A stretch of DNA of 63,937 nucleotides, counting the filler, from Vicugna vicugna (taxonomy: Eukaryota): NCBI GenBank assembly GCA_013265495.1. It is 78 parts of 75 records of this genome, joined end to end, with 100 filler letters (N's around TTAATTAATTAA, not from the genome) between each part and the next. Parts side by side here need not be neighbours in the genome. Positions count along the whole stretch, not along the records: positions 33,875 to 34,728 come from PNXW01012448.1; positions 34,829 to 35,645 come from PNXW01012449.1; positions 35,746 to 36,546 come from MU060034.1; positions 36,647 to 37,785 come from MU060035.1; positions 37,886 to 38,303 come from PNXW01012457.1; positions 38,404 to 39,486 come from MU060037.1; positions 39,587 to 40,150 come from MU060038.1; 71 more parts are not named here. One strand, 5' to 3'. Positions 2,872 through 63,765 of the stretch are shown piece after piece; position 1 is the stretch's first letter, and the number at the start of each line of letters is the position of its first letter. The translations under genes and the position numbers were made by a program. The notes beneath the pieces were generated by a model. The model saw only the letters and a list, made by a program, of their open reading frames with translations, was not told where the DNA came from and ran no database searches.

Positions 2872-3916
2872 GTTGTGAACATGTGCATGACTGATGTTTA
2901 AAATACCAAACAAGTTACCTATGCACTCTAAAATACTTACTTTGACTTTGTAGCTTCTTCCTATCACCAGTTTCAAGAATCACACTTTGATCCCACAAAA
3001 ACCCTCTTGGAGCGAATTCTTCCCTAGAGATATGTAATTTGAATAGATTCCATCTACATGATATTNNNNNNNNNNNNNNNNNNNNNNNNNNNNNNNNNNN
3101 NNNNNNNNNNNNNNNNNNNNNNNNNNNNNNNNNNNNNNNNNNNNNNNNNNNNNNNNNNNNNNNNNNNNNNNNNNNNNNNNNNNNNNNNNNNNNNNNNNNN
3201 NNNNNNNNNNNNNNNNNNNNNNNNNNNNNNNNNNNNNNNNNNNNNNNNNNNNNNNNNNNNNNNNNNNNNNNNNNNNNNNNNNNNNNNNNNNNNNNNNNNN
3301 NNNNNNNNNNNNNNNNNNNNNNNNNNNNNNNNNNNNNNNNNNNNNNNNNNNNNNNNNNNNNNNNNNNNNNNNNNNNNNNNNNNNNNNNNNNNNNNNNNNN
3401 NNNNNNNNNNNNNNNNNNNNNNNNNNNNNNNNNNNNNNNNNNNNNNNNNNNNNNNNNNNNNNNNNNNNNNNNNNNNNNNNNNNNNNNNNNNNNNNNNNNN
3501 NNNNNNNNNNNNNNNNNNCATGTAAGTTGATTACATAACCATGGCATTCCGTATTACGAACATGATTCATGCATCACGGATTCCTCAAACTTGAATTTCT
3601 GAGTTGTGAACATGCGCATGACTTAAGCTCAAACACCAAACAAGTTACCTATGCACTTTGATATATGTAATTTGACTTCGTAGATTCTGCCTACCACCAG
3701 TTTCAATAATCACACTTTGATCCCACAAAAAACCTCATGGAGCGAATTCTTGCCTAGAGATATGTAATTTGAATTGTTTACATCTACATAATATTCCGTG
3801 TTCCGTACATGCTACATACATGAAGAAATCGACAAACATGCATTCCTGAGTTGAGGGCATCTGGATTACTAATCTTTCATCCTCTATAAAAGGAATATTA
3901 TCATCTAGACACGTGT
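2872..3916 (-). repeat. Satellite D (AT-rich, ~247-bp monomers)
   Basis: Reverse complement of the D motifs CAAATTACATATCTCTAG and GGATCAAAGTGTGATT. Confidence 0.9.
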
Positions 3917-4923: not shown

Positions 4924-5839
4924 TGACAGCACCGCGGCCGCTTCCCAGGAACAGGCTCACAGGGAGAGGTGCACCCCGCGAACATGGGGAAGCAAAGTCC
5001 ACCCCAAGCGGCGGGGGAGTAAGTAACAAACTCAGGGGCTGCACGGGGTAGCCCGTACCACCGCACCCGCTTCCCGGGAGCAGACCACGACCTGAGGGCC
5101 GGCCGGGGATGTGCCAGAGCCGTCTAGCGCCTTCCCACCTCCCGGGTGAGCCCTGCTTTCCCAAAACCGAATATAAACGGCAGCGCAGACGCGGGGTGCA
5201 GGGACTAACTAATTCGGGGGGGGGGCACCAGGAACCACTGCGGCGGCCCGTACCCGCCTCAGGGTCCTAAAGGGCCCACCGCCCGGGCCTCAACCATGCA
5301 CCCCTACCTGTGCGCCTCCCCAGCTGCGCAGCCCAGACATCACTCGCCGGCTGAACGACCTGCGCGCCCCCACCAGCGCCCCCTTACCTGCCCGGCGGCG
5401 TCAGCGGACCCGTCGGCTAGCGGCGGTCCAGTCCCCAAGATGCCTTCTTCCTCGGGAGCTGGTGCAAAGAGCACCCAGCTCCCGCCCAGCTTCCCTACGC
5501 TCCGGGTGGGCTCCCGCGTCCGCGCGTCTGTGCGTCCGCGTCCCTCCTCCTCCCGCCAGAATCGCGGACCCTCGGGCTGGGGCTCCTGCCCTATAGGAGC
5601 CTGCGGATTAGCTTCAGACTCCCCGCAGCCTATCCGGGCCTCAACTTCCGCTGTCCCAGGTTCGCGGGAGTCGTGTTACAGATCAGCCTGCTCCAGGAAG
5701 GCGGTCGCTGTGCTGACGGGACGGGGGAGGCGGCGGCGGGATTGGGGCTGCCCCGTGTTACCGAGGGGATTTGCTTCCATTTCACGCTGTCGCCGCCGCC
5801 ACCCCCACACACTACCGCACCGCGCCCGCCTCCCAGGAG
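4924..5839. promoter_or_regulatory. CpG island / probable promoter with non-coding first exon on the minus strand
   Basis: Very GC- and CpG-rich. Minus-strand donor CAG|GTAAGG at 5388/5387. ETS-like ACTTCCG at about 5644, reverse CCAAT at about 5741, GC boxes nearby. Confidence 0.75.
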
Positions 5840-5939
5840 NNNNNNNNNNNNNNNNNNNNNNNNNNNNNNNNNNNNNNNNNNNNTTAATTAATTAANNNNN
5901 NNNNNNNNNNNNNNNNNNNNNNNNNNNNNNNNNNNNNNN

Positions 5940-6309
5940 ATTGTATATTCTGCATGCCGTATTCCGTATTCTGTGTTCTACATTGTATATTCCAGATCCT
6001 ATATTCAGTATTCTGTATTCTATATTCTAAATTCTGTGTTCTGCATTCCATGTTCTAAATTATGGATTCTATATCCTCTTATCTATATTCTAAATTCTGT
6101 GTTCTATATTGTATATTCATATTCTATATTCAGTATTCGTTATTCTATATTTTAATTTCTGTGTTCTGCATTCCATAATCTAAATTTTGGTTTCTATATT
6201 CTGTATTCTATATTCTATATTCTGAGTTCTACATTCTATATTCTGTATTGTATATTCTGCATTCCGTATTCTATATTCTATATTCTGTGATCTACATTCT
6301 ATATTCTAA
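5940..6309 (+). repeat. Satellite E (heptamer)
   Basis: 7-bp TATTCTR periodicity. Confidence 0.95.
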
Positions 6310-6409
6310 NNNNNNNNNNNNNNNNNNNNNNNNNNNNNNNNNNNNNNNNNNNNTTAATTAATTAANNNNNNNNNNNNNNNNNNNNNNNNNNNNNNNNNNN
6401 NNNNNNNNN

Positions 6410-6887
6410 ACTTCATGTAAGTGGAACCGTCTATTTTGACTGACTTCTTTCACAACTGAGTAACATTTTCAATATTTGTCCACATTGTGGCCTGGGTCAG
6501 TACTCTATGCTTCGCTATTGCTGAATAATATTCCACTGTATGGCTGGGCCCCTCTGTTTACCCATTCATCACGTGATAGACATTTGGGTTGTTTCTGTTT
6601 TTTGGCTCTGAAAAGGAATGGAGAAAAGTAATGGTGAAAATTTCTGTAGGAGTTTTTATGTGAACATTTGTTTTCAATTCTCTTACTTCTGTGCCCATTC
6701 AATTCTCTTACTTCTGTGCCCAGGAAGCAGAATTGCTGGATCATTCAGAAACCAAATGTTCAATTCTCTGAGGACATGCCAGGATGTTTTCCAAAGTGGC
6801 CACGCTGTGTTACGTTCTCACGAGCAAGGGCTGCGAGCTTCACTTCCTCTGTGTCCTCATTAATGCTTATTAATCTTTTTTTGATTA
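6410..6887 (-). mobile_element. Old LINE-1 (L1M-type) 3' fragment
   Basis: Resembles the antisense L1 3' region (TTGCTGAATAATATTCCACTGTATGG, GACATTTGGGTTGTTTC, AGAATTGCTGGATCAT). Confidence 0.8.
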
Positions 6888-6987
6888 NNNNNNNNNNNNN
6901 NNNNNNNNNNNNNNNNNNNNNNNNNNNNNNNTTAATTAATTAANNNNNNNNNNNNNNNNNNNNNNNNNNNNNNNNNNNNNNNNNNNN

Positions 6988-8210
6988 ATTCTATATTCTA
7001 AATTCTGTGTTCTGCATTCCATGTTTTAAATACTGGGTTGTATATTCTCTAATCTATATTCTATATACTGTGTTCTAAATTCTATATTCTAAATTCAATA
7101 TTAAGTAATCTTTATTCTATATTCTAAATTCTGTGTTGTGCATTCCATGTTCTAAATTTTGTGTTCTATATTCTGTGTTCTATATTCTGCCTTCCGTATT
7201 CTATATTCTCTATTCTGTGTTCTACACTCAGTANNNNNNNNNNNNNNNNNNNNNNNNNNNNNNNNNNNNNNNNNNNNNNNNNNNNNNNNNNNNNNNNNNN
7301 NNNNNNNNNNNNNNNNNNNNNNNNNNNNNNNNNNNNNNNNNNNNNNNNNNNNNNNNNNNNNNNNNNNNNNNNNNNNNNNNNNNNNNNNNNNNNNNNNTCC
7401 ATATTCTGTGTTCTACATTCTATATTTTATATTCGAAATTCAGTATTCTGTATTCTATATTCTAAATTCTGTGTTCTACATTCTATGTTCTTAATTCTGG
7501 GTTCTATATTCTCTATTCTATACTCTATATTTTTTGTTCATCATTCTAACTCTATATTATATATTCTGCATTCTGTAGTCTATATTCTATATTCTGTGCT
7601 CTACATTCTGTATTCTAAATTCTATATTCAGTTTTCTGTATTCTATATTCTAAATTCTGTGTTCTGCATTCCATGTTCTATATTCTGGATTGTATATTCC
7701 CTAATCTACATTCTATATACTGTGTTCTACATTCTATATTCTAAATTCAGTATTCAGTATTCTTTATTCTATATTCTAAATTCTGTGTTCAACATTATTT
7801 ATTTCATATTCCATATTCAGCATTCTGTTTTCTATATTCTAAATTCTGTGTTCTTCATTCCATGTTCTCAATTCTGGGTTTTGTAATCTGTTTTCCATAT
7901 TCTATATTTTGTGTTCTATATTTTATCTTCTGTATTCAATATTCTGCATTCCGTATACTATATTCTATATTCTGTGTACTACATTGTATATTCTAANNNN
8001 NNNNNNNNNNNNNNNNNNNNNNNNNNNNNNNNNNNNNNNNTTAATTAATTAANNNNNNNNNNNNNNNNNNNNNNNNNNNNNNNNNNNNNNNNNNNNTATA
8101 TTCAGTATTCTATTCACTTTATTCTAAATTCTATGTTCTACATTATATATACTATATTCTATATACAGTATTCTGTATTCTATATTTATATTCTGTGTTC
8201 TACATTGTAT
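6988..8210 (+). repeat. Satellite E (heptamer), two fragments separated by a linker
   Basis: 7-bp periodicity in 6988-7996 and 8097-8210. Confidence 0.95.
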
Positions 8211-8310
8211 NNNNNNNNNNNNNNNNNNNNNNNNNNNNNNNNNNNNNNNNNNNNTTAATTAATTAANNNNNNNNNNNNNNNNNNNNNNNNNNNNNNNNNN
8301 NNNNNNNNNN

Positions 8311-9381
8311 AATATGGAATGCAGAACACAGAATTCAGAATATAGAAAACAGAATTCTGAATATAAAAATTCGAATATAGAATGTTGAACACAGAATTTA
8401 GAATATAGAAAACAGTATACTGAATATAAAAATTCGAATATAGAATGTTGAACACAGAATTTAGAATATAGAAAACAGTATACTGAATATAAAAATTCGA
8501 ATATAGAATGTTGAACACAGAATTTAGAATATAGAAAACAGAATACTGAATATAGAATTTAGAATACAGAATGTAGAACACAGAATATAGAATATAGACT
8601 ACGGAATGTAGAATATAGGATATAGAATATAGAATGATGAACCCAAAATATAGAATACAGAATAGAAAAAATAGAACACAGAATTAAGAACATGGAATGT
8701 AGAACACAGAATTTAGAATATAGAATACATAATACTGAATATAGAATTTAGAATATAGAATGTAGTACACAAAATATGGAAAGTTAGATACGGAATGCAG
8801 AATATTGAATTCAGAATATAGAATGTAGAACACAGAATATATTATATTGCCTTCGGAATGCAGAATATAGAATATNNNNNNNNNNNNNNNNNNNNNNNNN
8901 NNNNNNNNNNNNNNNNNNNNNNNNNNNNNNNNNNNNNNNNNNNNNNNNNNNNNNNNNNNNNNNNNNNNNNNNNNNNNNNNNNNNNNNNNNNNNNNNNNNN
9001 NNNNNNNNNNNNNNNNNNNNNNNNNNNNNNNNNNNNNNNNNNNNNNNNNNNNNNNNNNNNNNNNNNNNNNNNNNNNNNNNNNNNNNNNNNNNNNNNNNNN
9101 NTAGAACCCAGAATTTAGAACATGGAATGCAGAACACAGAATTTAGAATATAGTATACAGAATACTGAATATAGAATTTAGATTATAGAATGTAGGACAC
9201 AGAATATAGAATGTAGAATAGGGAATGCAAAATATAGAATACAGAATATAGAATGTAGAACCCAGAATGTAGAATGTGGAAAACAGAATACAGAAACGAG
9301 AATTTAGAACATGAAATGCACAACACAGAGTTTAGCCTATAGAATACAGAATACTGAATATAAAATTTTGAATATAGTATG
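8311..9381 (-). repeat. Satellite E (heptamer) with a 63-bp higher-order unit
   Basis: AGAATAT/AGAACAC 7-mers; TATAGAAAACAG recurs at 8341, 8404, 8467 and 8530. Confidence 0.95.
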
Positions 9382-10229: not shown

Positions 10230-10641
10230 TCACCTAGCTTGAAGGGAACACAAAGCTTCTTTCCAGTTGCAAACACCACTCCCTACATGTATATGGGGAG
10301 GAACAAGCTCCAATTCGGTTTTACAGTGAAAACGGCAGGCAATGTTTCTCCTCAGATCCATTAGTGCTGGATGAACGAACGTCTCCCCACATGCTTTATT
10401 CTGAGAAATTAGTGTGTGTGAAAGCCGTCCTTCACCTACATTGAAGTGAACACAAAGATTCTTTTCAGTTTCAAACACCAATCCGTACATATATATGGGG
10501 AGGTACAAGCTCCAACTCGGATTTACAGTGAAAAAGGCAGGCACTTCAAACCGGCACTAGAAAACAGACTGAGAAACCAGACTAAGTTTTTCTCCAACAA
10601 CCCGTTCCATTTGTGCTGAATGAACGAACGTCTCTCCACAT
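10230..10641 (+). repeat. Satellite B (249-bp), rearranged copy
   Basis: TATATGGGGAGGTACAAGCTCCAACTCGG and GAAAGCCGTCCTTCACCTA motifs shared with 39587-40150. Confidence 0.9.
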
Positions 10642-10741: not shown

Positions 10742-11186
10742 AAGGAATATTTTCATCTAGACACGTGTACACGTTTTCAAAAGCTTACCCTAACACCAAG
10801 TTCGAATTCATGCATTTTTCACTGAAATATTGTTCTCAAGCGATTTCCACCTAACAGATATGTAATTTACATGAATTCCATCAACATGGCATTCCGGGTT
10901 CCGTACATGCTTCATGCATGACAGATACGAAAACATGAGTCTCTGGGTTGTGAGCATGTGGATTATTGAACTTTCATCCACCATACAAGGCAAATATACA
11001 CTTAGAAATTTTTACTCTGACTTCATAAGTTTTTTCTATCACCAGGATCAAAAATCGGACATTTGACACCAGAAAACAATCTTTGAGCGAATTCTCACCA
11101 ATACACATGTAATTTACATTGTTTACATAACCATTGTATTCCGTAATGTATTCCGTATAATGAACATGTTTCATGCATCATGAATT
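10742..11186 (-). repeat. Satellite D
   Basis: Reverse complement of the 34160-34600 region. Confidence 0.9.
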
Positions 11187-11286
11187 CCTCAAACATGCAT
11201 TTCTGANNNNNNNNNNNNNNNNNNNNNNNNNNNNNNNNNNNNNNNNNNNNTTAATTAATTAANNNNNNNNNNNNNNNNNNNNNNNN

Positions 11287-16738: not shown

Positions 16739-17753
16739 TCGAATCCGTCATGCATGTAGCATGTACGAAACCCGGAATGCTCTGTTAATGGAATTCATGT
16801 AAATTATATATCTATTAGGTGGAAATTGCTCCAGAAGTATTTTTCTATGAAAAATGCACAAATTCGAAAATGGTGTTAGGGGAAGCTTGTGAAAATGATT
16901 ACACGTGTCTAGATGAAACTCTTCCTTTTATAGAGGATGAAAGATCAGTAATCCACATGCTCTCAACTCATGAATGCATGTTTCTCAAATCCGTCATGCA
17001 TGTAGCATGAACGGAACACGAAATATCATTTAGACGGAATCAATTCAAATTACATAGCTCTAGGGTTCTATTCGCTCCAAGGTTGTTTTCCTTGGATCAA
17101 AGTGTGATTCTTGATACTGGTGACAGGCAGAAGCAATGAAGTCAAAGTAAATATATCAAACTGCATAGGTACCCTGTTATGGTTGAAACATAATTCATGC
17201 GCATGTTCACAACTCAGAAATGCATGTTTGAGGAATCCGTGTTGCATGAAACATGTTNNNNNNNNNNNNNNNNNNNNNNNNNNNNNNNNNNNNNNNNNNN
17301 NNNNNNNNNNNNNNNNNNNNNNNNNNNNNNNNNNNNNNNNNNNNNNNNNNNNNNNNNNNNNNNNNNNNNNNNNNNNNNNNNNNNNNNNNNNNNNNNNNNN
17401 NNNNNNNNNNNNNNNNNNNNNNNNNNNNNNNNNNNNNNNNNNNNNNNNNNNNNNNNNNNNNNNNNNNNNNNNNNNNNNNNNNNNNNNNNNNNNNNNNNNN
17501 NNNNNNNNNNNNNNNNNNNNNNNNNNNNNNNNNNNNNNNNNNNNNNNNNNNNNNNNNNNNNNNNNNNNNNNNNNNNNNNNNNNNNNNNNNNNNNNNNNNN
17601 NNNNNNNNNNNNNNNNNNNNNNNNNNNNNNNNNNNNNNNNNNNNNNNNNNNNNNNNNNNNNNNNNNATAGAATAGAAAAGATCAGTATTTCACATGCTCT
17701 CAACTCATGAATGCATATTTGTCTAATCCGTCATGCATGTAGCTTGTACGGAA
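16739..17753 (+). repeat. Satellite D
   Basis: The ATTAYAT anchor lies at 16803 and 17049 (246 bp apart). Confidence 0.92.
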
Positions 17754-27346: not shown

Positions 27347-28164
27347 ACGGAAAGCATAAGCTCGTCTCCCCTGAGGGTTTTCCATATGTCTTTGTGCCAG
27401 GGAAAGCTAGGGGGTTTGGCAGTATATCCCAGTGACAGAGGCTGCCTCCCCAATGTCAGGGAAGGTATTTCTTGGACTTCCCCGAACAGGGAACACCTGT
27501 GACTGAAGAGAGCTGCGTGGATTTGTCTCTCGAGATCCCCCACGCTCTGACAATGTTTTTGCAATCCTGAGCGTGGGGAGGTTCCACCAACGGTCGGCAG
27601 CACGTGGGTTCTAACGGAAAGCATAAGCTCGTCTCCCCTGAGGGTTTTCCTAATGTCTCAGTGCCAGTGAATTATAGGGGTGTTTGCAGGATATCCGAGT
27701 GACAGAGCCTGCCTCCCCAAAGTCAGGGAAGATATTTCTCGGACTTCCCCGAACAGGGAACACCTGTGACTGAAGAGAGCTGCGTGGATTTGTCTCTCGA
27801 GATCCCCCACGCTCTGACAATGTTTTTGCAATCCTGAGCGTGGGGAGGTTCCATCAACGGTCGGCAGCGCGTGGGTTCAAACGGAAATTCTAAGCTCGTC
27901 TCCCCTGAGGGTTTTCCTAATGTCTCTGTGCCAGGGAATGCTAGGGGGGTTGGCAGGATATCCAAGTTTCAGAGGCTGTCTCCCCAAGGTCAGGGAAGGT
28001 ATTTCTCGGACTTCCCCGAACAGGGAACAACTGTGACTGAAGAGAGCTTCGGGGAGTTGTCTCTCGAGCTCCCCCACGCACTGACAATGGTTCCGGAATC
28101 CTGAGCGTGGGGAGGTTCCACCAACGGTCGGCAGCGCGTGGGTTCTTACGGAAAGCCTAAGCTC
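27347..28164 (-). repeat. Satellite A, three full 267-bp monomers (reference array)
   Basis: ACGGAA anchor at 27347, 27614, 27881 and 28148 gives an exact 267-bp period. Confidence 0.97.
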
Positions 28165-28264: not shown

Positions 28265-29274
28265 GTCATGCATGTAACATGTACGGAACACGGAATATCA
28301 TGATGAAGGTATCTATTAAAATTACATATCACTAGGGTAGAATTCGCTCCAAGAGGGTTTTACTGGGATCAAAGTGTGATTCTTGAAACTGGTGACAGNN
28401 NNNNNNNNNNNNNNNNNNNNNNNNNNNNNNNNNNNNNNNNNNNNNNNNNNNNNNNNNNNNNNNNNNNNNNNNNNNNNNNNNNNNNNNNNNNNNNNNNNNN
28501 NNNNNNNNNNNNNNNNNNNNNNNNNNNNNNNNNNNNNNNNNNNNNNNNNNNNNNNNNNNNNNNNNNNNNNNNNNNNNNNNNNNNNNNNNNNNNNNNNNNN
28601 NNNNNNNNNNNNNNNNNNNNNNNNNNNNNNNNNNNNNNNNNNNNNNNNNNNNNNNNNNNNNNNNNNNNNNNNNNNNNNNNNNNNNNNNNNNNNNNNNNNN
28701 NNNNNNNNNNNNNNNNNNNNNNNNNNNNNNNNNNNNNNNNNNNNNNNNNNNNNNNNNNNNNNNNNNNNNNNNNNNNNNNNNNNNNNNNNNNNNNNNNNNN
28801 NNNNNNNNNNNNNNNNNNNNNNNNNNNNNNNNNNNNNNNNNNNNNNNNNNNNNNNNNNNNNNNNNNNNNNNNNNNNNNNNNNNNNNNNNNNNNNNNNNNN
28901 NNNNNNNNNNNNNNNNNNNNNNNNNNNNNNNNNNNNNNNNNNNNNNNNNNNNNNNNNNNNNNNNNNNNNNNNNNNNNNNNNNGAATATGAAACATCAGTA
29001 ATCCACATGTTCTCAACTCAGGAATGCATGTTTATCTAATCCGTCATGCATGTAGCATGTAAGGAACACGAAATATCATGTAGATAGAAGTCTATTCAAA
29101 TTACATTTCTCTAGGGTGGAATCCGCTCCAAGAGGGTTTCTCTGGGTTCAAAGTGTGATTTTTCAACCTGGTGATAGGAAGAAGCTACGAAGACAAATTA
29201 TATATATTTAAGGGCATATGTTACATTTCATGATTGAAACATCAGTCATGAGCATATTCACAACTCAGAAATGC
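28265..29274 (+). repeat. Satellite D
   Basis: GGAACACG..ATATCATG and GAATTCGCTCCAAGAGG motifs. Confidence 0.9.
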
Positions 29275-32298: not shown

Positions 32299-33774
32299 CA
32301 CATGCTCAGTTTTGAGAGTTAAGCGTGTGTGAAAGCCGTGCTTAACCTAGCTTGTTGGGAACACAAAGTTACTCTTCAGTTGCAAACTTCACTCCATACA
32401 TATATATGGGGAGGTACAAGCTCCAACTCGGTTTTACACTGCAAACCGCAGGAACTTCCAACCTGCACTAGGAAACAGACTGGGAATCCAGAGTAAGTGT
32501 TTCTCCTACAACACGTTCCCTTTTTGCTGGATGAATGAAAGTCTCTCCACATGCTCTGTTCTGAGAAATATGTCTGTGTGAAAGCCGGCTTTCACTTAGC
32601 TAAAGGGAACACAAATTTTCTTGTCACTTGCAAACTCCATTCCATAAATATATATGGGGAGGAACAAGTTCCAACTCGGTTTTACAGTGCAAACCGAAGG
32701 AACTTCAAACTGTCACTAGGAAACCAACTGAGAAACCAGAGTAAAGGGTTCTCCTGNNNNNNNNNNNNNNNNNNNNNNNNNNNNNNNNNNNNNNNNNNNN
32801 NNNNNNNNNNNNNNNNNNNNNNNNNNNNNNNNNNNNNNNNNNNNNNNNNNNNNNNNNNNNNNNNNNNNNNNNNNNNNNNNNNNNNNNNNNNNNNNNNNNN
32901 NNNNNNNNNNNNNNNNNNNNNNNNNNNNNNNNNNNNNNNNNNNNNNNNNNNNNNNNNNNNNNNNNNNNNNNNNNNNNNNNNNNNNNNNNNNNNNNNNNNN
33001 NNNNNNNNNNNNNNNNNNNNNNNNNNNNNNNNNNNNNNNNNNNNNNNNNNNNNNNNNNNNNNNNNNNNNNNNNNNNNNNNNNNNNNNNNNNNNNNNNNNN
33101 NNNNNNNNNNNNNNNNNNNNNNNNNNNNNNNNNNNNNNNNNNNNNNNNNNNNNNNNNNNNNNNNNNNNNNNNNNNNNNNNNNNNNNNNNNNNNNNNNNNN
33201 NNNNNNNNNNNNNNNNNNNNNNNNNNNNNNNNNNNNNNNNNNNNNNNNNNNNNNNNNNNNNNNNNNNNNNNNNNNNNNNNNNNNNNNNNNNNNNNNNNNN
33301 NNNNNNNNNNNNNNNNNNNNNNNNNNNNNNNNNNNNNNNNNNNNNNNNNNNNNNNNNNNNNNNNNNNNNNNNNNNNNNNNNNNNNNNNNNNNNNNNNNNN
33401 NNNNNNNNNNNNNNNNNNNNNNNNNNNNNNNNNNNNNNNNNNNNNNNNNNNNNNNNNNNNNNNNNNNNNNNNNNNNNNNNNNNNNNNNNNNNNNNNNNNN
33501 NNNNNNNNNNNNNNNNNNNNNNNNNNNNNNNNNNNNNNNNNNNNNNNNNNNNNNNNNNNNNNNNNNNNNNNNNNNNNNNNNNNNNNNNNNNNNNNNNNNN
33601 NNNNNNNNNNNNNNNNNNNNNNNNNNNTCCCTTTTTGTGAATGAAAGTCTCTCCACATGCTCTGTTCTGAGAAATATGTGTGTGTGAAAGCCGGCTTTCA
33701 CCTAGCTAAAGGGAACACAAATTTTCTTATCACTTGCAAACTCCATTCCATAAATATATATGGGGAGGAAGAAG
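32299..33774 (+). repeat. Satellite B (249-bp)
   Basis: ATGCTC anchor at 32302 and 32551 (249 bp). Confidence 0.93.
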
Positions 33775-33874: not shown

Positions 33875-34728
33875 GTACTTTTATAGAGGACGATAGATTA
33901 GTAATCCAGATGACCTCAAGTCAGGAATATATATTTCTCAAATCCGTCATATATATAGCTGTACGGAACACGGAATATCATGTAGATGGAATCAATTCAA
34001 ATTACATATCTCTAGCGAAGTATTCTCTCCAAGAGGTTTCTTTGGGATCAAAGTGTGATTCTTGAAATTGGTGATAGGAAGAAGCTACGAAGTCAAATTA
34101 AATGTTTCAGAGTGCATAGGTAACATGTTTGGTGGTTGAAACATCAGTCATGCGTATGTTCACAACTCAGAAATGCATGTTTGTGGAATCCGTGATGCAT
34201 GAAACATGCACGTAATATGGAATTCCTTGGTTATGTAAGCAATGTAAATTACATGTGTATTGGTGAGAATTCGCTCAAAGAGTGTTTTCAGGTGCCAAAT
34301 GTCCGATTTTAGAACCTGGTGATAGGAAAAACCTATGAAGACAGAGTAAATATTTCTAAGTCTATATACGCCTTGTTCGGAGGGTGAAAGGTCTGTAATC
34401 CACATGCTCACAAGTCAGAAACGCATGATTGCCAAATCCATCATACATGTAGCATGTACGGAACCCGGAATGCCATGTTGTTGGAATACATGTAAATTAC
34501 ATATCTGTTAGGTGGAAATCTCTCCAGAAAAATTCGAACTTGGTGTTAGGCAAAGCTTGTGAAAATGTGTACACGTGTCTAGATGAAAATATTCCTTTAA
34601 TAGAGGATGAAAGATTAGTAATACAGAAGCCCTCAACTCAGTAATTCATGTTTGTCAAATCCGTCATGTATGTAGTATGTATTGAACACGGAATTTCATT
34701 TAGATGGAATCTATTCAAATTACATATC
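33875..34728 (+). repeat. Satellite D, complete three-monomer HOR cycle
   Basis: ATTACAT anchor at 34001, 34248, 34496 and 34719 (247, 248, and 223 bp with a deletion); the fourth monomer matches the first. Confidence 0.92.
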
Positions 34729-35745
34729 NNNNNNNNNNNNNNNNNNNNNNNNNNNNNNNNNNNNNNNNNNNNTTAATTAATTAANNNNNNNNNNNNNNNN
34801 NNNNNNNNNNNNNNNNNNNNNNNNNNNNGCGTCTATTTGGGGATTTTCTGCATGTGAGGCTAACATGGGTCACTTGGGGGACAGGACCGGGCAGTCACAG
34901 CTTGGTTCACAGTCACCTAGTGCCCTCAAGGCTTTCATCCCATGGATGTGTCACCTCCCCCTGGATGGGGACAAGGGAACAAGTGGTGCGGCAGCTTCTC
35001 AGTGGTGGAGGCATTGCTCTCCAGACACAACACTCAACAGCATGGACCCCTGGTTTTGGCCACAGTCTTGGCTTGATGAGGCTGTTGGGTAGCTGAGCAC
35101 ATGAGACGTGGGTGCCATGCTTCCACTCTCACCAAGAGCTCTAAATTCCGGTCACCACAAATACTCCCTAGCCCATAAACAAAGAACAGTCTCTTTCCCT
35201 CGGGGAAGGGAACACAGTAGGAGAACGGATCATCCTGAGAGCACAAAAGGCCAAATCAGTCCTGCCATCAGGATTCTGACAGACGAGCCAGCTCAGTTCC
35301 TCTTACTAGTTGTTTACTTGGAGGATCTGGGGTATTTGGGTGACCTGCAAGTATCAGGAAATAGTACACGAGGGCTTTGTAGATTTTCTGGTCCGGTGTT
35401 AACTCACCCCATTGTAGCTGTCGTGCAAGGAAACAAAACTTGGTGGACAACAGGCCATGGCCTCTGCTCCCTGGTGGGGCCAGGAGGTTGTAATGTTAAG
35501 TACGATTGCGGGGGCATCATTTCTATGTTGAGAGGCCAGATGGCCTTACATATCTCTCATGCTGGATATCTAAGTTGCAGAGGGAAACTGGATTCCATCA
35601 AGCTCTCCAGCCAAGGAGGAGACCAGAAGTGGCCTCCTCCACCAANNNNNNNNNNNNNNNNNNNNNNNNNNNNNNNNNNNNNNNNNNNNTTAATTAATTA
35701 ANNNNNNNNNNNNNNNNNNNNNNNNNNNNNNNNNNNNNNNNNNNN

Positions 35746-36546
35746 ACCCAGGTGCTGCTGTCAGTTTGAAGAACCTCCCCACACTCAGAAAAGCAGAACA
35801 CTTCTTCACGTGTGTGCTGGATATAGGGAAAGAGTCAAAGCATCTTTCAGGGGGCACATTTATTCCATGGTTGTGGGTTGTAAATTAAAANNNNNNNNNN
35901 NNNNNNNNNNNNNNNNNNNNNNNNNNNNNNNNNNNNNNNNNNNNNNNNNNNNNNNNNNNNNNNNNNNNNNNNNNNNNNNNNNNNNNNNNNNNNNNNNNNN
36001 NNNNNNNNNNNNNNNNNNNNNNNNNNNNNNNNNNNNNNNNNNNNNNNNNNNNNNNNNNNNNNNNNNNNNNNNNNNNNNNNNNNNNNNNNNNNNNNNNNNN
36101 NNNNNNNNNNNNNNNNNNNNNNNNNNNNNNGGTTGGGGAAGTAGTTTAAAACCCTCCACTACCCACAGAGATGCACTCGCTAATACTTGGCTTTAGAGCC
36201 CATCCCCCACCATCGCTTACTGCTAGGCCTAGGAAAAGACTTAGGGAAGTCAAGCTAAGGGATTCTATTAAAACCCAGGTGCTGCTTTCTGTTGGAGGAA
36301 CCTCCCCACACTCAGAACCCCAGAAGACTTCTTCCTGTGTGTGCTGGACGTGGGAAAACAAAGCACACGCATTTTTCAGTGGTCACAGTAATTCCCAAAT
36401 TGTGGTTTGTATTTTAAACATCTTCACTGCCCATGGAGAGGCACACGCTAATACTTAGATTTAGATCCCAAATCCCACTTTCAACCACACACTGGCCTAA
36501 ACAAACCATGAGGGAAGACAAGCAAAGGGATTCTATTAAAACCAAG
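35746..36546 (+). repeat. Satellite C
   Basis: Reverse complement of C monomers in the conserved order. Confidence 0.9.
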
Positions 36547-36646
36547 NNNNNNNNNNNNNNNNNNNNNNNNNNNNNNNNNNNNNNNNNNNNTTAATTAATT
36601 AANNNNNNNNNNNNNNNNNNNNNNNNNNNNNNNNNNNNNNNNNNNN

Positions 36647-37785
36647 GCAGAACACGGAATTTAGATTATAGAATACAGAATACTGAATATAAAATATAGA
36701 ATGCAGAATGCAGAATTTAGAAAATACAATATAGAATACTGAATATAGAATTTTCAACATGGAATGCAGAACACAGAATTTAGATTATAGAATACATAAT
36801 ACTGAATATAGAATTTAGAATATAGAATTTGGAACACAAAATNNNNNNNNNNNNNNNNNNNNNNNNNNNNNNNNNNNNNNNNNNNNNNNNNNNNNNNNNN
36901 NNNNNNNNNNNNNNNNNNNNNNNNNNNNNNNNNNNNNNNNNNNNNNNNNNNNNNNNNNNNNNNNNNNNNNNNNNNNNNNNNNNNNNNNNNNNNNNNNNNN
37001 NNNNNNNNNNNNNNNNNNNNNNNNNNNNNNNNNNNNNNNNNNNNNNNNNNNNNNNNNNNNNNNNNNNNNNNNNNNNNNNNNNNNNNNNNNNNNNNNNNNN
37101 NNNNNNNNNNNNNNNNNNNNNNNNNNNNNNNNNNNNNNNNNNNNNNNNNNNNNNNNNNNNNNNNNNNNNNNNNNNNNNNNNNNNNNNNNNNNNNNNNNNN
37201 NNNNNNNNNNNNNNNNNNNNNNNNNNNNNNNNNNNNNNNNNNNNNNNNNNNNNNNNNNNNNNNNNNNNNNNNNNNNNNNNNNNNNNNNNNNNNNNNNNNN
37301 NNNNNNNNNNNNNNNNNNNNNNNNNNNNNNNNNNNNNNNNNNNNNNNNNNNNNNNNNNNNNNNNNNNNNNNNNNNNNNNNNNNNNNNNNNNNNNNNNNNN
37401 NNNNNNNNNNNNNNNNNNNNNNNNNNNNNNNNNNNNNNNNNNNNNNNNNNNNNNNNNNNNNNNNNNNNNNNNNNNNNNNNNNNNNNNNNNNNNNNNNNNN
37501 NNNNNNNNNNNNNNNNNNNNNNNNNNNNNNNNNNNNNNNNNNNNNNNNNNNNNNNNNNNNNNNNNNNNNNNNNNNNNNNNNNNNNNNNNNNNNNNNNNNN
37601 NNNNNNNNNNNNNNNNNNNNNNNNNNNNNNNNNNNNNNNNNNNNNNNNNNNNNNNNNNNNNNNNNNNNNNNNNNNNNNNNNNNNNNNNNNNNNNNNNNNN
37701 NNNNNNNNNNNNNNNNNNNNNNNNNNNNNNNNNAGATTAATGAATATAGAGTTTAGAATTTAGAATGTAGAACACAGAATATAGA
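36647..37785 (-). repeat. Satellite E (heptamer)
   Basis: AGAATAT-type 7-mers flanking a gap. Confidence 0.93.
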
Positions 37786-37885
37786 NNNNNNNNNNNNNNN
37801 NNNNNNNNNNNNNNNNNNNNNNNNNNNNNTTAATTAATTAANNNNNNNNNNNNNNNNNNNNNNNNNNNNNNNNNNNNNNNNNNNN

Positions 37886-38303
37886 CAGCCTCCTTCACTT
37901 AGGTTTTTGGAAACCCAGAGTTTCTGGCCATGGGGAATTAGGCTAGTTCCATATCTAAGGTGAGGCAAAAACTCCAGGGCTCTTTTCCATTGCAAATCGC
38001 TTTTACTTGAGACCGGCTTTAAGAATCATGCTGAGAAATCAGAGTAAGTGTTTCTGCATGCCACTCTACCTTTTATGCTGGATGAAAGAACGTCTCTCCA
38101 CATACTCACTTCTGACATCTCAATCTGTGTGGAAGCTGTTGTAAAACTACTAGATTTTTGGGAACACAGAGCTTCTGTCTTAGAGCATCTACACTACTTA
38201 CATATGTAAGGGGAGGCACAAGCTCCAACAAGGTTATCCACAGCAAACAGCTTTTACTTTGAAACCGGCACTTGAAAACATACAGAGAAATCAGAGAATG
38301 TGT
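37886..38303 (+). repeat. Diverged satellite B-related monomers (~251 bp)
   Basis: GCTGGATGAAAGAACGTCTCTCCACAT and GGGGAGGCACAAGCTCCAAC are shared with B; adjacent monomers are divergent. Confidence 0.8.
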
Positions 38304-39107
38304 NNNNNNNNNNNNNNNNNNNNNNNNNNNNNNNNNNNNNNNNNNNNTTAATTAATTAANNNNNNNNNNNNNNNNNNNNNNNNNNNNNNNNNNNNNNNNN
38401 NNNTTCACATCCTCACACCTCCCCTCAGCCTTCAACCCATTCTCTTCTTTCTCCTGAGTGTCAGGGGATCTCCTGGCCTCTACGTGTTGATTGATTTGAG
38501 TGGAAGATGGTCAACACTGCTTTGGGTGGCACCAGAGTAGGTTAAGTGCTGTCACTCAGACTAAACAGCAAAAGAAATATTGTCTTCTAGCTTTAAATGT
38601 ATTTTATGCCCCTCCCCTCNNNNNNNNNNNNNNNNNNNNNNNNNNNNNNNNNNNNNNNNNNNNNNNNNNNNNNNNNNNNNNNNNNNNNNNNNNNNNNNNN
38701 NNNNNNNNNNNNNNNNNNNNNNNNNNNNNNNNNNNNNNNNNNNNNNNNNNNNNNNNNNNNNNNNNNNNNNNNNNNNNNNNNNNNNNNNNNNNNNNNNNNN
38801 NNNNNNNNNNNNNNNNNNNNNNNNNNNNNNNNNCACACACACACACAACTTAATTGACAAGTTTATCTGATGCCTTTAAATCTTGAGTATTATTTTTTGA
38901 TGGCCACTTCAAAAGTGGAAAGCTATTAAAGGAAGAGAAATGAAGCATCTGAGTATTCAAAGCCAATATAATTTGGAATGTGTTTCTTAGTACTCATCTT
39001 CATCTTTAAGAAATTGACCATTTTCACTGCCCACTTATAATTGCCAATAAAATCCAACTAAAGAAAACATGAACCAAGTACCAAATGAAATAATTTGTCT
39101 ATTTCAG

Positions 39108-39160
39108 GTCTGCCCCCCAGCTTTGATCTGGAGGAGGGCATCACGTATGCACAGATGCAG
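39108..39160 (+). CDS. Candidate 53-bp internal coding exon (xLPPSFDLEEGITYAQMQ), gene unknown
   Basis: Acceptor TTTGTCTATTTCAG| and donor CAG|GTGAGG; the phase 1-to-0 frame is open. Confidence 0.5.
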
Positions 39161-39586
39161 GTGAGGTTTCTGCACCNNNNNNNNNNNNNNNNNNNNNNNN
39201 NNNNNNNNNNNNNNNNNNNNNNNNNNNNNNNNNNNNNNNNNNNNNNNNNNNNNNNACTGTGATTGGTCCTAGAGGAAAGTGGGTATTACAATTTGATTTC
39301 TAACAGGTGAGATCCAGGGTTTGCTTTCAAATATTAAAGTTCAGTTTAGAACTTAGAATTCACCCCACCAAAGTTAAGTTAAATCTGGCAGCCCATGCTG
39401 GGCAGGGGACTCATGGACAGAATCCCCAGGATGAATAGTTTCAGCAACTGCTTGGACTTTCCTGAGAACCCACTTCTGGCAAGCTTNNNNNNNNNNNNNN
39501 NNNNNNNNNNNNNNNNNNNNNNNNNNNNNNTTAATTAATTAANNNNNNNNNNNNNNNNNNNNNNNNNNNNNNNNNNNNNNNNNNNN

Positions 39587-40150
39587 GTTTTCACTCTAAA
39601 ACCGACTTGGAGCTTGTACCACCCCATATATATGTATGCAGTGGAGTTTGCCACTGAAGAGAAAATTTGTGTTCCTTTCAAGATAGGTGAAGGACGGCTT
39701 TCACACACACATATCTCTCAGAACTGAGCATGTGGAGAGACGTTCATTCATCCAGGAAAAGTGGAACGGGTGGCAGGATAAACACGTACTCTGGTTTCTC
39801 AGTCTGTTTCCTAGTGCCGGTTTGAAGTTCCTGCGGTTTTCACTGTAAAACAGTGTTGGAGCTTGTACCTCCCCTTATATATGTACGGAGTGGAGTTTGA
39901 AACTGAAATGATACTTTGTGTTCCCTTCAAGCAAGGTGAAGGACGGCTTTCACACACACTTATCTCTCAGAACTGAGCATGGGAAGATACGTTTCTTCAT
40001 CTAGCAAAAAGGGAACGGGTGGCAGGATAAACACGTACTCTGGTTTCTCAGTCTGTTTCCTAGTGCCGGTTTGAAGTGCCTGCCGTTTTCACTGTAAAAC
40101 CGAGTTGGAGCTTGTACCTCCCCATATATATGTATGGAGTGGAGTTTGCA
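39587..40150 (-). repeat. Satellite B (249-bp), reference array
   Basis: GTTTTCAC anchor at 39587, 39836 and 40085 gives an exact 249-bp period. Confidence 0.96.
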
Positions 40151-40250: not shown

Positions 40251-40795
40251 AGGCTCCGAGGTACTTTCAGACTTACCCAGCCCTGGCGAAGTCGAATTTA
40301 TGGGAGACACGAAGAGAAGTTGGCCGAAATGTTGGCTGCACGGATTGAGGAGAGATGCGAACACATGGATGAGAGATGTTCTGCTACAATGGAGAACACT
40401 GTCGTGGAGACAGCTGTAGAGGATACCAGGCTCAAAAGACATTCATGAGACTTATTGAACCTCGCTGATACTGACAGAAACATACGGAGTGCCAACGTGG
40501 ACTTGAGGAAGTTCCTCAATTCTCTTCTCCAAGAACGGGTCCAAGGTCCCTGACGTCTGCAAGAGAAGAGATGGCAGAGATGATCAAAACGCTCCTGTTC
40601 TTGGAAGAGGTCNNNNNNNNNNNNNNNNNNNNNNNNNNNNNNNNNNNNNNNNNNNNNNNNNNNNNNNNNNTTTTCCAAGGTTTGGACCTAGCTAGAAAGC
40701 ACTTGCCTTCCCTCCTCTCCACTCAGGCATCCATTTGGAAGGATCAGTACCTGAGCTGCAATGAAGCCATTACGAGAAGAGTAAGCCCCTCCTAG
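40251..40795 (+). pseudogene. cTAGE-family (MIA2/cTAGE5-derived) diverged retrocopy, disabled
   Basis: RSRIYGRHEEKLAEMLAARIEERC resembles cTAGE5 RSRLYVGREKKLALMLSGLIEEKS, and later EEMAEMIKTLLFLEE resembles ELMADISKRIQSLED. No introns are evident. In-frame TGA at 40446 and a frameshift near 40540. Confidence 0.75.
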
Positions 40796-41891
40796 AATCA
40801 GAGTACCTCCAGCTTCACACTCAGTGAAAAACAGTGAACTCCTTAAAGGTCAAATAGTCTCGGCTGAAATAGATAGGAATTGAATACTTAGCTCACACCT
40901 AGAAACGATGGCCTTCCGCTAGATTCAGCAAATGTNNNNNNNNNNNNNNNNNNNNNNNNNNNNNNNNNNNNNNNNNNNNNNNNNNNNNNNNNNNNNNNNN
41001 NNNNNNNNNNNNNNNNNNNNNNNNNNNNNNNNNNNNNNNNNNNNNNNNNNNNNNNNNNNNNNNNNNNNNNNNNNNNNNNNNNNNNNNNNNNNNNNNNNNN
41101 NNNNNNNNNNNNNNNNNNNNNNNNNNNNNNNNNNNNNNNNNNNNNNNNNNNNNNNNNNNNNNNNNNNNNNNNNNNNNNNNNNNNNNNNNNNNNNNNNNNN
41201 NNNNNNNNNNNNNNNNNNNNNNNNNNNNNNNNNNNNNNNNNNNNNNNNNNNNNNNNNNNNNNNNNNNNNNNNNNNNNNNNNNNNNNNNNNNNNNNNNNNN
41301 NNNNNNNNNNNNNNNNNNNNNNNNNNNNNNNNNNNNNNNNNNNNNNNNNNNNNNNNNNNNNNNNNNNNNNNNNNNNNNNNNNNNNNNNNNNNNNNNNNNN
41401 NNNNNNNNNNNNNNNNNNNNNNNNNNNNNNNNNNNNNNNNNNNNNNNNNNNNNNNNNNNNNNNNNNNNNNNNNNNNNNNNNNNNNNNNNNNNNNNNNNNN
41501 NNNNNNNNNNNNNNNNNNNNNNNNNNNNNNNNNNNNNNNNNNNNNNNNNNNNNNNNNNNNNNNNNNNNNNNNNNNNNNNNNNNNNNNNNNNNNNNNNNNN
41601 NNNNNNNNNNNNNNNNNNNNNNNNNNNNNNNNNNNNNNNNNNNNNNNNNNNNNNNNNNNNNNNNNNNNNNNNNNNNNNNNNNNNNNNNNNNNNNNNNNNN
41701 NNNNNNNNNNNNNNNNNNNNNNNNNNNNNNNNNNNNNNNNTCAGTGGTCTTCGGACAATCCCTCCCACCATGGCTGTATAGAAACAAAGAGNNNNNNNNN
41801 NNNNNNNNNNNNNNNNNNNNNNNNNNNNNNNNNNNTTAATTAATTAANNNNNNNNNNNNNNNNNNNNNNNNNNNNNNNNNNNNNNNNNNNN

Positions 41892-42645
41892 TCTCTATTC
41901 TATATTCTATATGCTGTGTTCTAAATTCTATATTCTGCATCCCATATTCTGCATACCGATTCTATATTCTATATACTGTGTTCTACATTCTATATTCTAA
42001 TTTCTATATTCAGTATTTCGTATTCTATATTCTAAATTCTGTGTTCTGCATTCCATGTTCTAAATGCTGGGTTCTATATTCTCTATTCTATATTATATAT
42101 TTTGTCTTCATCATTCTATTTTCTATATTCTATATACTATATTCTGCATTCCGTATTCTATATTGTATATTCTGAGATCTACATTCTATATTCTAAATTC
42201 TATATCCAGTATTCTGTATTATATATTCTGTGTTCTGCATTCTATGTTCTAAATTCTATATTCATCATTCTGTATTGTATATTCTAAATTCTGTGTTCTG
42301 CATTCCATGATGTAAATTCTGGGTTCTGCATACTGATTTCCATATTCTATATTCTGTGTTCTATATTCTATATTCTGCCTACTCTATTCAGTATAATGTA
42401 TTCTATATTCTAAATTCTGTTTTCTGCATTCCATGTACTAATTTCTGGTTCTATATTCAGTATACTATACTCTAAATTCTGTGTTCTGCATTCTGTATTC
42501 TAAATTCTATATTCAGTATTCTGCATTCTATACTCTTAATTCTGTGTACTTCATTCCATGTTCTAAATGCTGGTTTCTGTATTCTCTATTCTATATTATG
42601 TATTTTGTGTTCATCATTCTATATTCTATATTCTTTATAGTGCAT
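41892..42645 (+). repeat. Satellite E (heptamer)
   Basis: 7-bp periodicity. Confidence 0.95.
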
Positions 42646-42745: not shown

Positions 42746-43575
42746 TAAAGGATTCTACTGGAACCCAGGCGCTGCTTTCAGTTGGAAGAATTTCCCCACA
42801 CTCAGGAATCTGGAACTCAGCCTTGAGTGGGGGGGATATGTGGGGCCCCACACCACGCAGATTTACGTAGGCACAGGTTTTCCCCTTTAGGGAGATGTCC
42901 TCTTGGTATCTCTTCAGTCAATCAGGGGACGCTAGCTTGTACTTGGCCTCCAAGCCTAGCCCCAAGCTTTAGCTTACAGCCAGGCCTAGGGAAACACAGT
43001 GAATACCTACTAAATTATTTTATTAGAACCCAGGTACTGCTGTCAGTTGCAGCAGCCTCCACAAACTCAGGATTACTGAACAGGCCTTCTAGTTTGTCCT
43101 GGATTTGGGGAAAGAATGTCCACGATTCTTTATGGGGGCCAGGTGTTCCCAGTTTGGGGTTGTAGTTTAAACATCTTCACTACCCATAGAAAGGCTCGCC
43201 GTAATACTTGGCTTTAGAGCCCATACTCCACCATCGCTCAAAGACTGGCATATGAAAACACTCAGGGAGGCCAACCTTAGGGATCCTAATAGATCCCAGT
43301 TGCTGCTGTCAGTTGGAGGAGCCACCCACACTCAGAAAGCAAGAAAACTTCTTCGTGTGTGTGCTGGAGGAGTGGAAAGAGAGCCTAAGCTGCTTTCAGG
43401 GCGCACAGATATAAGATATTATCGTTGGTTGCAGGAAAAACACCTCCTATTCACATGGAGTGGAACTCGTTAATATTTGGTTTTAGAGACCAAACCCACT
43501 TTATTTCGCACTCTGGCCTAGCTAAAACAAAGGGAAGATAAGGAATTCTATTACAGGCCATGCACTGCTGTCATT
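42746..43575 (+). repeat. Satellite C, more diverged monomers
   Basis: CCCAG...CTGCTGTCAGTTG motif recurring at about 265-bp intervals. Confidence 0.85.
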
Positions 43576-49098: not shown

Positions 49099-49924
49099 AG
49101 GCTGTGAGGGAAAGCTGGGGGTTGGGCTTGGAAGCCAAGTAGCCGCTTGTGCCAACCGATTGACAGAGGATTTACTTAGGGAACTCCCCTACCGGGGAAC
49201 ACCTGTGTCACCATTCATCTGCGTGGATTGGGGCTGCACACCTCTCCCACACACAAGAGTGTCTCCGGAGCCCTGAGTGTTAGGAAGTTCCTCCAAGTGA
49301 CAGCAGCATCTAGGTTCAATACAATCCCTTAGCTTGTCTTCCGTGATGGCTTGCTCTGCCAGGAGTGCGGGAGAAATTGGAGGTTGGGCTCTAAAACGAA
49401 GTATTAGCGAGTGCCTATCCATAGGATGTGGAGGTGTTTAACCTACATCCTCCAACCTAGGAATACCTGTGCCCCAGGATAAATGCGTGGACTCTGTTTC
49501 CACACCTCCACCACACACATGAAGAACTCTTCTGGTATCCTGAGTGTGGTGAGGCAACTCCAACAGACAGCAGCATCTGGGATCTAATAGGATCCCTTAG
49601 GATGACATCCATGTGTGTTTTCCAAGGACGGGCTGGGAGCGAAGGTGGGGGTTGGGCTCTAAATCCAAGTAATAGCGAGTGCCTCTCTATGGGCAGTGGA
49701 GGTGTTTAAAGTACATTCCCTCCCTGGGAACACCTGTGCCCCCATAATGTTGCGTAGACTATGTATCCCCAACACCAGCACACACAGAAAGACTTGTTCA
49801 GGTATCCTGAGTTTGGGGAGTCTCCTCCAACTGACAGCAGCGCCTGGGTTCTAATAGAATCCCTTAGCTTGTCTTCATTCAGGCCTGGCTCTGAGGGAAA
49901 GCTGGGGGTTGGGCTTTGAGGCCA
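49099..49924 (-). repeat. Satellite C
   Basis: GACAGCAG anchor at 49299, 49566 and 49833 (267 bp). Confidence 0.92.
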
Positions 49925-52807: not shown

Positions 52808-53361
52808 AAGTCAAATTAAATATTTCAATGTGCATATGTAAATTGTTTGGTGTTTGAAACATCAGTCATACGCATGTTCATAACTCAGAAATGCCTGTTT
52901 GAGGAATCCTTGTGCATGAAACATGTTCCAAATACGGAATGCCATGGTTATTTAAACAATGTAAATTACATGTGTATTGGTGAGAATTCGCTCAAANNNN
53001 NNNNNNNNNNNNNNNNNNNNNNNNNNNNNNNNNNNNNNNNNNNNNNNNNNNNNNNNNNNNNNNNNNNNNNNNNNNNNNNNNNNNNNNNNNNNNNNNNNNN
53101 NNNNNNNNNNNNNNNNNNNNNNNNNNNNNNNNNNNNNNNNNNNNNNNNNNNNNNNNNNNNNNNNNNNNNNNNNNNNNNNNNNNNNNNNNNNNNNNNNNNN
53201 NNNNNNNNNNNNNNNNNNNNNNNNNNNNNNNNNNNNNNNNNNNNNNNNNNCAAGAAGATTGAGGTCAAAGTCTGATTCTTGAAACTGGTGATAGGGAGAA
53301 GCAATGAAGCCATAGAAAATATTTCTAAGTGCATATGTACCCTGCTATGTTTGAAACATCA
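52808..53361 (+). repeat. Satellite D
   Basis: Matches 34090-34280. Confidence 0.9.
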
Positions 53362-63711: not shown

Positions 63712-63765
63712 AAACAAGAAATGTATACACTTAGAAATATTTACTCTGACTTCATAGGTTTTTTC
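63712..63765 (-). repeat. Satellite D fragment
   Basis: Matches 10985-11037. Confidence 0.8.

Follow-up and report, generated by a model that had tools for sequence, protein, structure and literature searches.

Two tandem repeats of nearly equal monomer length, here called satellites B and D, are present in a stretch of DNA of 63,937 nucleotides from Vicugna vicugna (assembly GCA_013265495.1; "the window" denotes this whole stretch). The question they raise is whether both derive from one ancestral unit, one as a monomeric array and the other as a higher-order repeat (HOR). The original prediction, placed at 33875-40150, answered yes from composite motifs and added that B and D parallel two further families, A and C, as a second superfamily. 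In our reading, for which we estimate a probability of about 0.8, B, D and a B-like repeat called V form a single camelid satellite superfamily that goes back to a unit of about 248 bp and whose branches were homogenised separately; the blocks which they share are residual.

The window is composed of 78 small scaffolds and 77 spacers (N around TTAATTAATTAA, e.g. 401-500). Adjacency across any TTAATTAATTAA spacer is artificial, and the longest unbroken piece is 937 bp. The region 33875-40150 is not one locus: it consists of seven unrelated scaffolds joined by spacers, in the order D, unclassified, C, a heptamer satellite, V, unclassified and B, and the closeness of B and D there therefore carries no meaning. 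None of the 78 scaffolds holds two satellite families. Cutting the 16 B, V and D contigs at the position equivalent to CACATGCTC gave 30 fragments of at least 40 nt (8 B, 2 V and, for the three monomer types of D, 10 D1, 6 D2 and 4 D3; a 63-nt piece at 17691 was assigned to D1 by its 91% match to the 16954 copy). Copy identities and trees are based on the 15 of these 30 fragments that reach at least 200 nt.

Monomer lengths agree, as had been claimed, with consensus sequences of 249 bp for B and of 247, 248 and 246 bp for D1, D2 and D3. In circular local alignment on both strands, B scores 310, 194 and 221 against D1, D2 and D3, respectively. The corresponding dinucleotide shuffles (1000 each) have means of 61-63 and maxima of 103, 110 and 102; none reaches the observed scores (z = 28.9, 15.8 and 19.4), and neither does any of 300 ten-base block shuffles. 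Consensus-level global identities are 147/246, 137/246 and 139/245 (56-60%), with four gap openings of 1-2 bp in each alignment, and along the monomer B keeps a single strand and register with each D type. The same relationship is found between real copies: all 36 B x D pairs of at least 200 nt score 91-228, against a reverse-strand maximum of 75. Non-satellite tiles of the window, 96 in number, score at most 101 against the B, D1, D2 and D3 consensus sequences and at most 111 against a pooled D consensus, compared with 194-330 for B-D. A D-only profile matches every B contig and V, with E values from 2.8e-12 to 0.6; five monomers lie below 1e-8, and unrelated contigs of the window give nothing below E 5. 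A B profile matches D1 at E 1.3e-6 and 2.4e-4. Percent identity was discarded as a homology test, as gapped shuffles average 53-54% and reach 65%; because shuffles match percent identity alone, it is the score together with the small number of gaps that discriminates. B-D distances are about 0.6-0.8 substitutions per site, and default blastn (E 1e-5, over 60 bp) gives no B-D link, although relaxed scoring does.

The pattern GGATGAA-N10-TCCACATGCTC-N24-AAA[GT]CCG has three literal matches, at 16935(+) in D and at 32529(+) and 39753(-) in B; the TACATAT block of B is found at 10486, 32397 and 40134(-), and the D block at 3036(-). The identical spacing that had been claimed holds for these quoted motifs but not over the whole monomer, where the short gap openings intervene. 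The homology extends beyond the motifs. Positions 129-235 of B, which contain just five bases of a cited motif, align with D1, D2 and D3 in the right register at z = 5.9, 7.7 and 4.8, a level reached by none of 500 shuffles each. When the monomer is divided into quarters, 10 of 12 best alignments lie no more than 3 bp from the expected register and no quarter fails against all three D types. B-D identity is still 48-53% in the columns outside the 81 cited ones, where ungapped chance gives 26%. The score thus lies far outside the shuffled distribution and colinearity is kept over the monomer, including the mostly uncited positions 129-235; neither a chance-level score nor a loss of colinearity, the outcomes named as fatal to the original prediction, was therefore found. 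These alignments confirm descent of B and D from a common ancestral unit. A satellite superfamily comprises families of common ancestry but low identity, and on their colinear homology above the shuffled null B and D qualify as one.

The copies on which the comparison of organisation is based are the following.

39587..40150, minus strand: satellite B, 2.3 monomers of 249 bp (Tandem Repeats Finder period 249, 89% matches).
32299..33774, plus strand: satellite B, two contigs (32299-32756 and 33628-33774) around an N gap.
10230..10641, plus strand: satellite B, the first monomer (10230-10387) with a 47-bp deletion and a self-repeat distance of 202.
37886..38303, plus strand: V, two partial, diverged B-like monomers.
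33875..34728, plus strand: satellite D, in the order D3 end, D1 (33907-34152), D2 (34153-34400), D3 (34401-34623, with a 23-bp deletion), D1 start (34624-34728).
16739..17753, plus strand: satellite D, D3-D1-D2, gap, D1; D1-to-D1 spacing 737.
10742..11206, minus strand: satellite D, D2 with a 12-bp duplication (the duplication-bearing copy is 10961-11206), then D3.
2872..3916, minus strand: satellite D, D3-D1-D2, gap, D1; D1-to-D1 spacing 730.
28265..29274, plus strand: satellite D, two D1 pieces across an N gap; spacing 778.
52808..53361, plus strand: satellite D, D1-D2, then beyond a gap a D1-like piece of greater divergence; spacing 504 across the gap, off the trimer period.
63712..63765, minus strand: satellite D, a 54-bp D2 piece.

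D is a D1-D2-D3 higher-order repeat with a unit of about 741 bp. All nine within-contig transitions follow the order D1-D2-D3-D1, and monomers at the same position are 81-89% alike (means 82, 87 and 87 for the three types) compared with 63-67% between different types, that is, between neighbours. D1, D2 and D3 each form a clade (support 99-100), as does D as a whole (100/100). Across N gaps, whose sizes are estimates, D1-to-D1 spacing is 730, 737 and 778 in three of the four gapped scaffolds. B is a monomeric repeat with a period of 249 bp and its copies are 80-86% alike (mean 83). The contrast between a monomeric B and an HOR D was therefore correctly predicted. Describing it as homogeneous versus diverged is misleading, since B copies (83%) and same-type D copies (82-87%) are equally alike; the wording merely describes the size of the repeating step. 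The two also differ in composition (45.4% G+C in B, 36-39% in the more A+T-rich D). CATG palindromes number 6-7 per D monomer (e.g. 16946-17199) and 0-1 in A, B and C. Single copies carry indels (the 47-bp deletion in B, the 23-bp deletion in D3 and the 12-bp duplication in D2), and no clear internal sub-repeat was seen in A, C, B or D, with autocorrelation peaks of 0.32-0.36 over means of 0.25-0.27.

A phylogeny of B, the D types and the repeat at 37886 had been proposed as a check. In it the D types form clades, and the nearest relative of B is V (67% identical) and not D, B and D copies being 46-54% identical with averages of 49-50%. The V monomers are 69% identical to each other and 48-51% to D. 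V may represent a B-like layer that is older or has been homogenised less, or it may be a second HOR, and its 1.7 copies cannot tell which. With 16 of 60 A and C fragments as outgroup, D has a long stem (0.36) and the base of B, V and D receives no branching order; we therefore claim no order of events.

The same repeats are present in public sequencing data. Words from B were found in 20 runs of 11 studies, 13 of which contain at least half; the best shares were 0.58 (run X1), 0.53 (X6) and 0.51 (X12), with three organisms among the best holders. Four of the 24 listed runs were compared with the D scaffold 33875-34728 at 80% likeness; these runs were chosen by B words, their contigs are short, and summed depth is not copy number. 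X1 and X6 gave 55,001 and 12,718 contigs like the D scaffold, mostly 90-99% alike. Both contain a joint from 34728 to 34035 with 25 letters between, corresponding to a period of 719 (717 for this copy). X1 also shows the start of D1 behind the end of D3, and its loose ends at 34529-34531 reveal the 23 bases deleted from this D3 copy. Among the joints listed, depths at those that violate the order are 700-3,300, whereas the bins mostly have 1e5-1e7. The picture in X12 is of another kind: of 434 D-like contigs 301 are less than 90% alike and none reaches 99%, and there are one-monomer hops from 34412 to 34177 with 11 letters between, a period of 247 (hop depths 22,435 and 8,046 beside bins of 2-3e5). 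A tick RNA run, X15, resembles it, with 39 of 41 contigs below 90% and similar loose ends. As a lead, the organism of X12 may keep B about as well as the others and D only as a diverged relative, which could be monomeric or an HOR of other types. One loose-end motif of X12 was considered as a possible B-D intermediate: its first 20 bases match B at 15 positions and the D types at 10-13 in register, while over all 30 bases each matches at 17-18. The RNA runs X15-X20, which hold small shares or are metagenomes, give no evidence of transcription.

Together, these observations can be accommodated by a simple history. An ancestral array of about 248-bp units would have split into separate arrays, each then homogenised separately by unequal crossing-over and gene conversion. 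In B this would have proceeded by a one-monomer step, and in D by a three-monomer step, its monomers having by then diverged to 63-67% identity. B and D would have ceased exchanging long ago, as they retain no patch of high identity. The motifs common to both would then be the residue of roughly even divergence and not selected binding sites, a component included in the probability given for the whole explanation. As to location, B is more likely the centromere-core repeat, and presumably the one bound by CENP-A, because it matches the most abundant tandem repeat of the llama (2.9% of the genome); D would most likely be a sister array located in heterochromatin, pericentromeric or of another kind.

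Other explanations differ widely in how well they fare. That B and D are unrelated, and their likeness a product of chance, composition or assembly with composite motifs picked by eye, has a negligible probability. It is true that composites had been used, that gapped shuffles attain similar percent identity and that the assembly pieces are below 1 kb, but the dinucleotide, block, reverse-strand and real-DNA controls were all exceeded and refute this explanation; moreover, no scaffold contains both B and D, public runs include the two of them, and B also occurs in an independent llama data set (PMC4053949). A more substantive alternative is that selection has preserved the blocks because they bind proteins or position nucleosomes or, in a weaker form, that monomer length alone is constrained. 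We consider this improbable. B-D matches are not clustered in comparison with permutations (window variance p 0.33-0.92, window maximum p 0.26-1.0), nor are the 86 columns common to B and all three D types (p 0.73-0.91). The longest B-D exact runs, of 7-11 bases, are unexceptional (permutation p 0.16-0.95): simulations that spread 60% identity evenly have a median longest run of 9 and reach at least 11 in 30% of trials. D1, D2 and D3 vary about as much inside the cited blocks as outside (9.6/10.1, 4.6/6.3 and 6.0/6.8%). The CENP-B core pattern comprises nine core bases of a 17-bp box. The complete core is absent from the window and the best matches are 8/9 in D1 and 6/9 in B. The D1 site is carried by two of eight D1 fragments of at least 100 nt, at 3001-3017(-) and 28342-28358(+), and is absent from B, D2 and D3; it is near chance, being reached by 8 of 300 shuffles with six consensus sequences scanned. 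Human CENP-B binding is reported solely at canonical boxes in the part of the preprint available to us (bioRxiv 10.64898/2026.05.25.727640). A 10-bp periodicity of WW dinucleotides (A or T at both positions) was not significant in any case (p 0.054-0.99). With no clustering, no complete CENP-B box and no significant WW periodicity, the proposal that the blocks are binding or positioning sites is not upheld.

Several points nevertheless weigh against our reading, and some of them favour selection. Within B, mismatches are fewer in the cited columns (33/551, 6%) than elsewhere (100/999, 10%), which could reflect constraint, although the cited columns had been chosen from those same B copies. Indels ordinarily run near a tenth of substitutions. 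B-D alignments contain few for their amount of substitution: four gaps of 1-2 bp at about 0.6 substitutions per site, while indels of 12, 23 and 47 bp are seen in single copies. This hints at a constraint on length which neutral divergence does not explain; monomer length may be constrained, with the qualification that gap penalties could hide compensating indels. In the quarter-monomer tests, only 6 of 12 reach the level of at most 2 in 500 shuffles. Long trimer arrays were not seen directly, the longest D contig being 1.15 units, and in the fourth gapped scaffold (52808-53361) the spacing is 504 instead of about 741. This may stem from an error in gap size, a two-monomer HOR variant or a further D type; the diverged D1-like piece at 53251-53361 (81% to D1) goes with this spacing. 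Finally, the joint depths are those of the listed joints, and X1 was overloaded.

The reading of B, V and D as one superfamily can be extended to the 267-bp families. Their consensus sequences (267 bp from 33 fragments for A, 266 bp from 27 fragments for C) are identical at 192 of 264 positions, and C monomers are 57-90% alike. Two copies serve as examples.

35746..36546, plus strand (the orientation of the weak B homology): family C, diverged 266-bp monomers, an example lying within 33875-40150.
27347..28164, minus strand (the B-homologous orientation): family A, 267-bp monomeric repeat, the reference example.

Here the alternative to two parallel superfamilies is that A/C and B/V/D share a single older source unit; B would lie closest to their junction, and D would be the branch that changes fastest and is richer in A+T. 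This extends our explanation and replaces only the notion of two parallel superfamilies, and we lean moderately towards it. C aligns locally with B at a score of 112 (68/108 identical), which no shuffle out of 4000 attains (Gumbel p 1.4e-4, or about 2e-3 when corrected for 15 pair tests) and which 1 of 300 block shuffles does. In the held-out rest of the monomer 14 of 2000 shuffles reach the C-B score and 20 of 2000 the C-D score, while A-B (141/2000) and A-D (128/2000) are not significant. A register-free full-length test gives 0/300 for C-B, 1/300 for A-B, 6/300 for C-D (13, 87 and 22 of 300 against D1, D2 and D3) and 161/300 for A-D. The best A-B local region is the same as for C-B, its score being reached by 28 of 1000 shuffles. 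Profiles agree in part: apart from one unassigned A fragment, the six matches of a C profile outside A and C all fall in B contigs (best E 5.6e-4), and the tail of B-profile matches fell in four C contigs, but BV and BD profiles reach C only at E 0.024 and 0.23. On the other side, all eight local tests of A or C against D are at chance, the reverse control is exceeded by just 5 of 28 single-copy pairs for B x C, by 3 of 63 for D x C and by none of 81 for D x A, and the fixed-register global A/C tests are biased upward by an anchor picked by eye. B thus appears weakly but repeatedly related to C, by four tests, whereas A-D and most C-D comparisons do not pass. Of the proposal that B is to D as A is to C, the B-D pair stands, but with B nearest to V and weakly homologous to C two parallel superfamilies are probably too narrow, and there may be just one.

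Families A, C, B/V and D combined account for 38% of the sequenced bases of the window, of which 43,601 lie in pieces of at least 20 nt (A 13.9%, C 11.9%, D 7.6%, B 3.6%, V at 37886 1.0%), and a 7-bp satellite for a further 13.1%. The latter has a higher period of 63 bp (9 x 7) and occupies 11 scaffolds, e.g. 4017-4823, 5940-9381, 36647-37785 and 41892-42645. An origin of D from it was considered, as it shares four 11-mers with D1/D2, but is not supported, with no profile match. Some family A copies contain internal duplications (176-382, 865-905 and 599-1172, with periods of 109, 21 and 288 bp). The scaffolds at 34829-35645, 38404-39486 and 4924-5839 are non-satellite and unclassified; G+C content is 60% across bases 5001-6000, and the whole window has no Rfam match to a structured RNA.

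A wider and more tentative proposal, which we think somewhat less probable than not, is that A, C, B/V and D all come from one 250-267-bp unit, with B near-frozen across camelid lineages; D would be strictly trimeric in some species, whereas another would have a 247-bp repeat of different, perhaps monomeric, organisation. If B is frozen and D rebuilt while the karyotype is unchanged at 2n=74, camelids would offer a natural experiment on which relative carries CENP-A, and also on whether it is the length of the monomer, and not its sequence, that is conserved. Camelid centromeric repeats are nearly undescribed, as far as the available part of PMC13751797 indicates. A trimeric sister of the 249-bp repeat and the probable 267-bp link provide monomer classes for annotating complete camelid assemblies, and the relations of B, D and C can inform probe design, by avoiding or exploiting cross-reaction, and a shortlist for CENP-A mapping. 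That related satellites occur as monomers and as HORs is well known in principle from primates, cattle and plants, and the gain is descriptive unless the contrast of a frozen B and a rebuilt D holds.

Prior descriptions of these repeats are few. Judged from its sequence, B is the llama (Lama glama) candidate centromere repeat of Melters 2013: its 40-mer at 40055-40094 occurs without mismatch in the llama repeat given in supplement 1 of PMC4053949, the lengths are 249 and 248 nt, G+C contents 45.4 and 45%, and the remainder is alike by eye in the portion available. The llama repeat makes up 2.9% of the genome and its HOR is given there as "not found"; B is likewise monomeric here. D is a homolog and not a member of that repeat, as shown by the 46-54% identity of B and D copies. 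The study gives one consensus per species and assumes the most abundant repeat to be centromeric, an assumption which failed in two test species (PMC4053949). In the part of its material searched, no match was found to the D and A/C 12-mers tried, and the relatives V, D and C were not found. In the accessible text of an alpaca survey (Mendoza-Cerna et al. 2026, PMC13751797), centromeric repeats are set aside and no comprehensive camelid study is said to have existed before. No 248-bp family is among its VpaSat families, and four B/D motif strings had no match in the first 400 characters of each VpaSat consensus. VpaSat16 (1863 bp) of that survey does share a 14-mer with family C (scaffolds e.g. 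35746-36546, 42746-43575 and 49099-49924). By arithmetic VpaSat14/16 (1864/1863) equal about 7 x 266 bp and VpaSat15 (3718) about 14 x 266 bp, and C may thus be a 7-mer HOR. The piece at 40671-40935 belongs to the alpaca VpaSat08/09/11/12 short-arm group in the same source, with an exact 20-mer in VpaSat09 on the opposite strand. The word "satellite" was not found in the part of PMC6598621 available, and a literature search on dromedary centromeres, satellites and CENP-A listed one unrelated sheep review. In the literature searched we did not find the B-D relationship described for camelids, although SAC-SAT, Vidal-Rioja 1987/1994 and repeat libraries may already contain B or D.

B and D are equally homogenised, unlike the situation in humans, where HOR arrays are homogeneous and monomeric layers diverged. 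The likeness to primate alpha satellite, as set out in the accessible part of Shepelev et al. 2009 (PMC2729386), is one of organisation and implies no relation in sequence: one ancestral monomer gave monomeric and higher-order arrays, and older relatives persist beside newer expansions, a layering that would be invisible in sub-kilobase pieces. The library model, in which related repeat variants coexist, is illustrated in the portion of PMC4053949 available by cichlid repeats of 237 and 206 bp and by grass variants. As in that model, the camelid monomers coexist in separate arrays with abundance or form differing between lineages; they differ from its examples in being organised as monomer versus trimer, with near-unchanged length and about 50% identity between copies. 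B and D are, in this respect, a case of ordinary library-type satellite evolution.

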